Shown: positions 3,592 to 3,662 of the stretch, one piece after another | Layout: each line of letters opens with the position of its first letter | Position numbering within the stretch: position 1 is the first letter of the stretch | Assembly (NCBI GenBank): GCA_030699545.1 | Contig: JAUYMC010000029.1 | Coordinates: 1 to 42,190, forward strand | Length of the DNA stretch: 42,190 nt | Source of the DNA: Gemmatimonadales bacterium | Lineage (GTDB): Bacteria; Gemmatimonadota; Gemmatimonadetes; Gemmatimonadales; GWC2-71-9 | Reading direction: 5' to 3' | The notes under the pieces: model-generated | The model's input: the letters and a program-made list of their open reading frames with translations, nothing else | Database searches by the model: none | Told to the model about the DNA's origin: nothing | Program-made: the position numbers and the translations under genes

Positions 3592-3620
3592 TTGCGAGAA
3601 TGCTTCGCGAGCGGTATGCT
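3592..3620 (+). promoter_or_regulatory. Sigma70-type promoter of the cbb operon
   Basis: TTGCGA (3592-3597), a 17-bp spacer and TATGCT (3615-3620), 42 nt upstream of the cbbL ATG, which has a GGAGG Shine-Dalgarno. Confidence 0.65.
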
Positions 3621-3630
3621 GGACCTAGAC

Positions 3631-3648
3631 TTGTGAATTAATTCACAT
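3631..3648. promoter_or_regulatory. Palindromic operator, Rex-box/CRP-FNR-like, downstream of the -10 box
   Basis: TTGTGAATTAATTCACAT contains the perfect 16-bp palindrome TGTGAATT/AATTCACA. It matches 13 of 14 positions of the Rex consensus TTGTGAA-N4-TTCACAA and also fits CRP TGTGA-N6-TCACA. It is very AT-rich against a GC-rich background. Confidence 0.7.
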
Positions 3649-3662
3649 ACTCGGAGGCTCGC

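Follow-up and report, generated by a model that had tools for sequence, protein, structure and literature searches.

Nearly all that is known of how bacteria control the Calvin cycle concerns CbbR, the LysR family regulator that normally activates cbb operons, and, in purple bacteria, additional redox control by RegB/RegA. Rex is a repressor with a winged helix and a Rossmann fold, and its dimer binds TTGTGAA-N4-TTCACAA at a low NADH/NAD+ ratio and leaves the DNA as NADH rises. Rex/ROP regulons have reportedly been described in several bacteria, including Streptomyces coelicolor, Thermus, Bacillus and Clostridia, and the classical Rex targets in Streptomyces are rex itself, nuo and atp. The DNA considered here is a contig of 42,190 nucleotides from a Gemmatimonadales bacterium (JAUYMC010000029.1; the whole of it is called the window), which carries an operon for ribulose bisphosphate carboxylase (RuBisCO) and phosphoribulokinase (PRK). 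An inverted repeat at positions 3631-3648, just upstream of the first operon gene cbbL, is predicted from its sequence to be the operator for the single Rex protein of this genome, with a probability of about 0.8.

The cbbL box shares its operator consensus with the known Rex/ROP regulons, and the genome has in common with them the protein architecture, the predicted autoregulation of rex, the predicted nuo and atp targets and an apparently repressor-type position near the gene start. It differs in the target, a RuBisCO/PRK operon, and in the lineage, Gemmatimonadales. Compared with CbbR-activated cbb operons, the regulated genes are the same, and so is the theme of a Calvin cycle tied to the redox state as an electron sink. 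However, cbbR is adjacent in those systems, whereas here none is adjacent and no LysR protein of CbbR grade was found in G000 and four other box-bearing genomes. The predicted control also differs in sign, being negative through a repressor released by NADH instead of positive through CbbR. The classical divergent cbbR-cbbL pair occurs within the same family, in genomes G137 and G512. The nearest precedent found is the acetogen Eubacterium limosum, in which Rex motifs were predicted before the acetyl-CoA synthase/CO dehydrogenase genes of the Wood-Ljungdahl pathway (PMC11725836). There, a CO2-fixation pathway was likewise put under Rex by comparative genomics, but it is the reductive acetyl-CoA pathway in the anaerobic energy metabolism of another phylum, with no RuBisCO involved.

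The window is one contig (C355) of a draft genome (G000) of 3.16 Mb in 402 contigs, with 69% G+C and 93.9% completeness. The gene for tRNA-Leu(CAA) is the divergent neighbor of cbbL, and its promoter must share the 96-bp intergenic region between the two with that of the cbb operon. There, a 17-nt spacer (3598-3614) separates TTGCGA from TATGCT, followed by a 10-nt spacer (GGACCTAGAC, 3621-3630), the box TTGTGAATTAATTCACAT, the four nucleotides ACTC, the Shine-Dalgarno sequence GGAGG and 5 nt before the cbbL ATG at 3663. The box ends 14 nt before the cbbL start and fits TTGTGAA-N4-TTCACAA at 13 of the 14 specified positions.

A preliminary description of this DNA had given TTGCGA-N17-TATGCT with the box 10 nt further on, a box position between the -10 box and the Shine-Dalgarno sequence and a 13/14 fit, all of which the sequence bears out. 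It had also called the box a perfect palindrome, which holds for the inner 16 bp and fails for the full 18 because the outer T/T are unpaired. It was right that the divergent gene is a tRNA, not cbbR, and that no CbbR is adjacent: the LysR_substrate search returned no LysR gene on the window contig. Its placement of the box at the transcription start is an inference from a promoter that is weak though conserved, with a -10-like hexamer 10 nt 5' of the box. The predicted start would fall just 5' of the box and would put the box at about +3 to +20 of the transcript. A Rex dimer is proposed to sit on the box, and because the box lies between the -10-like hexamer and the ribosome-binding site, bound Rex would block RNA polymerase from a roadblock position.

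G000 contains one rex gene, located outside the window (C72:6536-7156) and encoding a protein of 206 aa. The protein matches PF06971 (72.7 bits) and the NCBIfam Rex model NF003995 (261.4 bits, cut-off 126). It aligns end to end with the solved Rex structures 3wg9, 3ikt and 1xcb (E about 1e-46). In the alignment to 3ikt and 1xcb, which covers residues 3-205 (E about 7e-46), VGAGRMG stands opposite VGMGRLG, and both the G-x-G-x-x-G stretch and the DNA-binding stretch QVRKDLS..G.RG.GY are present. For an identical protein, PF06971 and PF02629 are precomputed, corresponding to a winged helix plus a Rossmann fold over the full length.

The single perfect 14/14 box of G000, TTGTGAAATAATTCACAA, is found at the start of rex itself. 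This box (C72:6519-6536) lies in the 11-bp gap between rsmA and rex, overlaps the rsmA stop and has the A of the rex ATG as its last base. As a separate observation, the overlap with the rsmA/ksgA TGA and the end at the rex ATG leave no room for a leader or a Shine-Dalgarno sequence, so rex may come from a leaderless transcript, with a -10 element inside the box spacer (AATAAT). The nuoA box is similarly close to its gene, 5 nt from the ATG.

Over the whole genome, the 14-base consensus gave 1, 3 and 2 sites at 0, 1 and 2 mismatches, and the means of 30 shuffles that kept local composition were 0, 0.07 and 0.6. At two or fewer mismatches, six sites are therefore set against 0.67 expected, and all of them are intergenic and beside a gene start. 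The sites belong to rex, the atpZ/I/B operon, atpA, nuoA, a cupredoxin gene and cbbL (Table 1). Their flanks are those specific to Rex (T before TGTGA, A7/T12), and their 4-nt spacers are rich in A+T. A perfect box at the rex start was present in all five relatives checked (three genera), with four different spacers, and relatives also have the sites at atpA, in the atpI region and at the cupredoxin gene. Each of the five rex-bearing relatives has 4-8 sites at two or fewer mismatches, 1-2 of them perfect; the reversed-pattern control gave 0-1. Upstream of the atpA box, a long inverted array of GCGGATT/AATCCGC heptamers with a terminator- or REP-like look was also seen (C98:6380-6500), between a regulator-like open reading frame (ORF) and atpA.

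These counts bear on whether the palindrome arose by chance and has no function, a reading whose probability is close to nil. The window contains the 12-base core TGTGAA-N4-TTCACA once, at 0 mismatches. A window-level control found a match in 22 of 100 shuffles, which might seem to leave room for chance; as this control was run at two or fewer mismatches, it is uninformative for an exact match, and the genome-wide counts and local shuffles were used instead. At one or fewer mismatches, G000 has four sites against 0.07 expected. Furthermore, the box is kept in eight of the nine genomes of its CbbL clade while the flanks diverge, and this conservation already contradicts a chance origin.

The search for conservation covered 401 genomes of the family, of which 13, including G000, have a form I cbbL match; all 13 upstream regions were examined. 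Eight of them carry the box in the same place with one mismatch, as TTGTGAA(TTAA/AGAA)TTCACAT. The box-bearing genomes are eight of the nine family genomes whose CbbL proteins are 87-91% identical, and they represent two genera. The spacer is TTAA in G000 and G085 (genus g1) and AGAA in the six genomes of genus g8 (G368, G153, G032, G344, G407 and G317). In the other five upstream regions (G053, G137, G512, G476 and G399), the best site has 6 mismatches; CbbL identity is 67-68% for G137 and G512 and 55-57% for G476 and G399. The exact core was not found upstream of cbbL in G144, from another family of the order, and none of 80 cbbL loci of other phyla (74-87% identity) has the box, the best site there having 4 mismatches.

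An alignment of the eight box-bearing regions showed what is constant: GTTGCG at the -35 position, TAT(G/C)(C/G)T at the -10 position, the box plus the ACT after it, and the Shine-Dalgarno sequence, while the flanks diverge. GTTGCG is in place in the six genus-g8 loci and TAT(G/C)(C/G)T aligned in seven of the eight loci. Nothing is conserved upstream of the -35 in this alignment.

Metagenome contigs were scanned for the exact pattern of the box plus ACTNGGAGG, and 21 loci were recovered. In 20 of them cbbL lies directly downstream, and the remaining one is ended by its contig. Because the pattern itself defined the matches, the scan gauges specificity and not frequency. The spacer variants were TTAA (4), AGAA (16) and ATAA (1), and the half-sites are invariant in the 8 genomes and 21 metagenome loci. 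Genus g8 and 15 of the 21 metagenome loci have a second box, TCGTGAAATAATTCACAA, which is 270-415 bp away from the cbbL box on its upstream side. The G032 copy precedes a divergent prk by about 27 nt (NF005655, 342.8 bits, cut-off 236), and a transaldolase gene comes after this prk. With TCGTGAAATAATTCACAA before the divergent prk, RuBisCO and PRK are each behind a Rex box in both gene arrangements.

An alternative reading takes the repeat as a hairpin of the mRNA 5' leader that acts on mRNA stability or translation, instead of as a DNA operator. If transcribed, the repeat would fold as a 6-bp stem with a 4-nt loop, and the loop positions alone vary among relatives. However, the fold (-7.8 kcal/mol, z -0.43) does not surpass those of shuffled sequences, 51 of 200 of which were equally stable or more so, and no compensatory change in the stem was found in the 8 genome or 21 metagenome loci. 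The identical half-site at unrelated operons and at rex points to a protein that reads DNA, and we regard the hairpin as highly improbable.

Several observations weigh against the assignment to Rex. The promoter hexamers are weak, fitting TTGACA/TATAAT at 8 of 12 positions, and a promoter/terminator consensus scan of 3000-4000 under a 9-of-12 rule reported no site because they are one match below that rule; they are weak by consensus yet conserved in the eight-locus alignment. The transcription start is a prediction, and the RNA-library contigs leave 3588-3731 uncovered, which is uninformative either way. G053 belongs to the clade with 87-91% CbbL identity and has rex, yet it is without the box, so the link between Rex and cbbL is not universal. 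The remaining points concern two other kinds of regulator, a CRP-family protein and a LysR activator.

The box core TGTGAATTAATTCACA is also a perfect TGTGA-N6-TCACA, so that its 16 bp fit sites of the CRP/GlxR type perfectly. G000 has one clear CRP-family protein (C327:14101-14814; PF13545, 79.4 bits), and its helix reads RETVSR, which resembles the recognition helix with which E. coli CRP reads TGTGA. Given this core and this helix, co-binding by the CRP-family protein is possible. If such a protein of the CRP/FNR family were the actual binder, cbb would follow cAMP or another effector, not NADH, but this appears improbable. The best NCBIfam model for the protein is CRP NF008732, at 133 bits under a cut-off of 266. 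In all six genomes compared, it is the start of rex and not that of crp that has the best site, and the sites share Rex-type flanks as well as A+T-rich spacers. A regulon made of nuo, atp and rex is what is known for Rex.

A more direct comparison came from genomes without rex. Of 201 genomes searched in the order, 191 gave a rex match; all four genomes of genus g27 and one of g19 (93-97% complete) gave none. Because rex is nearly universal in the order, a broad presence/absence test is weak, and these five genomes were used as controls. All five have 0 sites at one or fewer mismatches, yet they keep the CRP-family orthologue at 65-69% identity. Their two-mismatch sites number 0-4, all with G+C-rich spacers, a frequency close to that of the reversed control (0-1). 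The motif, being gone from relatives that keep crp and are without rex, follows rex and not crp; the absence of rex in these five controls rests on assemblies that are 93-97% complete, which counts on the other side. Separately, an intergenic 22-bp perfect palindrome, CTGTGTGACGTACATCACACAG, was noticed at C126:683-704. It has a TGTGA-N6-TCACA core, and its G+C-rich spacer and non-Rex flanks suggest the CRP-family protein, not Rex, as the candidate binder.

Each of the in silico tests set beforehand favored Rex. One rex gene is present and the best box of the genome is at its start; sites precede nuoA and two atp operons; the box is conserved at orthologous cbbL in eight of nine genomes of the clade; and, with a CRP-family protein present, the motif tracks rex in the rex-less control. 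The preliminary description had named Rex as the probable binder and a CRP/FNR protein as the alternative, and that preference was upheld on these points.

Rex could also be only one layer of control, with an unseen activator needed in addition, either the LysR protein encoded on contig C47 or a factor acting upstream of the -35. In that case, the departure of Rex would not be enough to turn on the operon. Weak hexamers that escape the scan at 8/12 are typical of activator-dependent promoters. G000 has one generic LysR gene, on C47 and cut by the contig end, whose product is moderately CbbR-like (32% identical to the CbbR of G137; 153.6 bits on the CbbR model, cut-off 450) and could in principle act on cbb from afar. 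However, the 25 bp between the tRNA gene and the -35-like hexamer in G000 leave little room for the usual CbbR sites, and the stretch upstream of the -35 is the one in which the alignment showed no conservation. Four more genomes with the box (G085, G153, G032 and G344) gave no match to a G137 CbbR query at E<=1e-20. An additional activator is thus a possibility that we consider unlikely, though the likeliest of the alternatives to Rex acting as proposed here.

No CbbR match was found within 1.5 kb in any of the eight box-bearing loci. In G137 and G512, cbbR is divergent from cbbL and the box is missing; the G137 CbbR scores 279.8 bits on the CbbR model, its top match, below the curated cut-off of 450. 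The box and an adjacent cbbR are mutually exclusive among the cbbL loci of the family.

Table 1. Features of the cbb locus in the window and the other Rex-type sites of G000 given with their target genes.
Feature	Position or contig	Strand	Basis or remark
tRNA-Leu(CAA), divergent neighbor of the cbb promoter	3481-3566	-	ARAGORN
-35-like hexamer TTGCGA	3592-3597	+	read from sequence
-10-like hexamer TATGCT	3615-3620	+	read from sequence
Candidate Rex operator TTGTGAATTAATTCACAT	3631-3648	no strand	read from sequence; 16-bp perfect palindrome 3632-3647
Shine-Dalgarno GGAGG	3653-3657	+	read from sequence; kept in relatives
cbbL, form I RuBisCO large subunit	3663-5111	+	NF003252, 749 bits, cut-off 438
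cbbS, RuBisCO small subunit	5128-5550	+	PF00101, 130.9 bits
cbbX, red-type RuBisCO activase	5504-6445	+	TIGR02880, 505.8 bits, cut-off 459.25
prk, phosphoribulokinase, last operon gene	6442-7383	+	NF005655, 323.3 bits, cut-off 236
Rex site 23 nt before atpZ-like ORF leading to atpB	C239		atpB TIGR01131, 117.7 bits
Rex site 19 nt before atpA	C98		TIGR00962, 474.6 bits on truncated ORF
Rex site 5 nt before nuoA	C176		NF005922, 109 bits, below cut-off 155
Rex site between cupredoxin gene and outer-membrane-protein gene	C273		cupredoxin PF00127

Because the next ORF (7376-7915) is on the minus strand, cbbL-cbbS-cbbX-prk is a four-gene operon, and it carries both Calvin-cycle-specific enzymes and the red-type activase. 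Read from its first possible start, cbbX would share 47 nt with cbbS, so translation may in fact begin further downstream; the TIGR02880 match starts at residue 22. Outside the family, the nearest CbbL proteins (74-87% identity) are found in metagenome-assembled genomes (MAGs) of Acidobacteriota, Chloroflexota, Actinomycetota, Methylacidiphilaceae, Dormibacterota and Eremiobacterota, a set called form IE.

Metatranscriptome libraries X4 and X6 (one study) and X20 (another) contain assembled contigs 90-99% like cbbL, cbbS, cbbX and prk. Some of them span gene junctions: record 19 of X4 (4398-5220), and records 27 (5045-5599) and 30 (6243-7382) of X6. These contigs may hold DNA and give no start, strand or level, and they were not counted as expression or co-transcription.

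The stretch 3567-7505, with the promoter, the box and cbbLSX-prk, has the look of a 3.9-kb insertion into a variable site next to tRNA-Leu(CAA). The operon of G085 is flanked by the same tRNA gene. In the genus mates G507, G522 and G525 (loci L149, L150 and L151), tRNA-Leu(CAA) lies 1330, 130 and 550 bp, respectively, from the region that follows prk here, with no cbb operon between, and cbbL of this type is present in only two of the 16 searched genomes of genus g1. One RNA-library contig links position 3566 to 7506, with 195 other letters between.

Other features of the neighborhood were recorded as well. Shortly before the tRNA gene, and read in the same direction as cbbL, lies a gene (2436-3299, plus strand) for a MEDS-domain protein (PF14417, 78 bits) that also gives a weak anti-sigma-like match of the RsbA kind. 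A 179-aa ORF without a family match (7376-7915, minus strand) is convergent with prk, and after it comes the gene for an ECF sigma factor (8341-8904); this minus-strand block (7376-8904) is kept in 21 of 21 genomes of the genus at about 67-70% DNA identity. The region 8997-16406 encodes a TetR regulator followed by enoyl-CoA hydratase, aldehyde dehydrogenase, a 3-oxoadipyl-CoA-type thiolase, a BoxB-like di-iron protein (219 bits, below cut-off) and 3-hydroxyacyl-CoA dehydrogenase, and it resembles an aromatic-CoA degradation cluster of the box/paa-like kind. At 38656-40824 (plus strand), there is a homologue of restriction enzymes of the BbrUII/HgiDII family (240.9 bits, below the 550 cut-off).

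The proposed mechanism is as follows. Rex would bind the cbbL box and be released by NADH, so that both Calvin-cycle-specific enzymes would be made only at a high NADH/NAD+ ratio. Accumulating reductant would then lift the repression of the cbb operon along with that of complex I and ATP synthase, and Rex would occupy the usual role of CbbR in this Gemmatimonadales lineage.

Possible electron sources for autotrophic growth were searched for in G000. A [NiFe] hydrogenase was not found in this genome (93.9% complete), nor in G085 and G053, and a photosynthetic reaction-centre protein was not found in G000. No form I CO dehydrogenase large subunit scored above cut-off in G000 (best 274.6 vs 991 bits), and the same was true of SoxB (best 108 vs 550 bits). 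That neither a hydrogenase or reaction centre nor a CO dehydrogenase or SoxB above cut-off was found in G000 favors a role of the cbb operon as a reductant sink or in mixotrophy; the preliminary description had likewise inferred an electron sink or a mixotrophy switch, and such a role could apply in this genome. All three g8 genomes checked (G153, G032 and G344) encode a [NiFe] hydrogenase large subunit (about 770 bits). In genus g8, the Rex-cbb switch could gate hydrogen-driven autotrophy, and the same wiring may serve different lifestyles in g1 and g8.

A bolder version goes further. It holds that Rex took over from CbbR as the chief switch of the Calvin cycle; that RuBisCO and PRK in genus g1 are an NADH-triggered reductant valve of a chemoheterotroph, co-regulated with complex I and ATP synthase and not for autotrophic growth; and that the module moves as a 3.9-kb cassette into the slot flanked by tRNA-Leu. 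We put this forward tentatively, as a possibility against which the odds still lean.

RuBisCO in Gemmatimonadota MAGs has already been reported, in passages silent on its regulation (PMC8779627). No literature on Rex control of RuBisCO, cbb or PRK was found, as judged from titles and abstract openings, and an earlier mention is possible. The Rex protein itself is regular; the novelty would lie in the target, with the Calvin cycle placed under a repressor of known kind.

With a single protein, an 18-bp site and NADH involved, the prediction can be tested sharply and at low cost. In metagenomes, the conserved box could readily serve to find such operons. If the prediction is true, there would be a second, simpler logic for the Calvin cycle, wired to an NADH/NAD+ sensor, in which CO2 is fixed when reductant is in surplus. 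Many soil and groundwater MAGs contain RuBisCO but no obvious lithotrophic energy source, and these would become easier to interpret.

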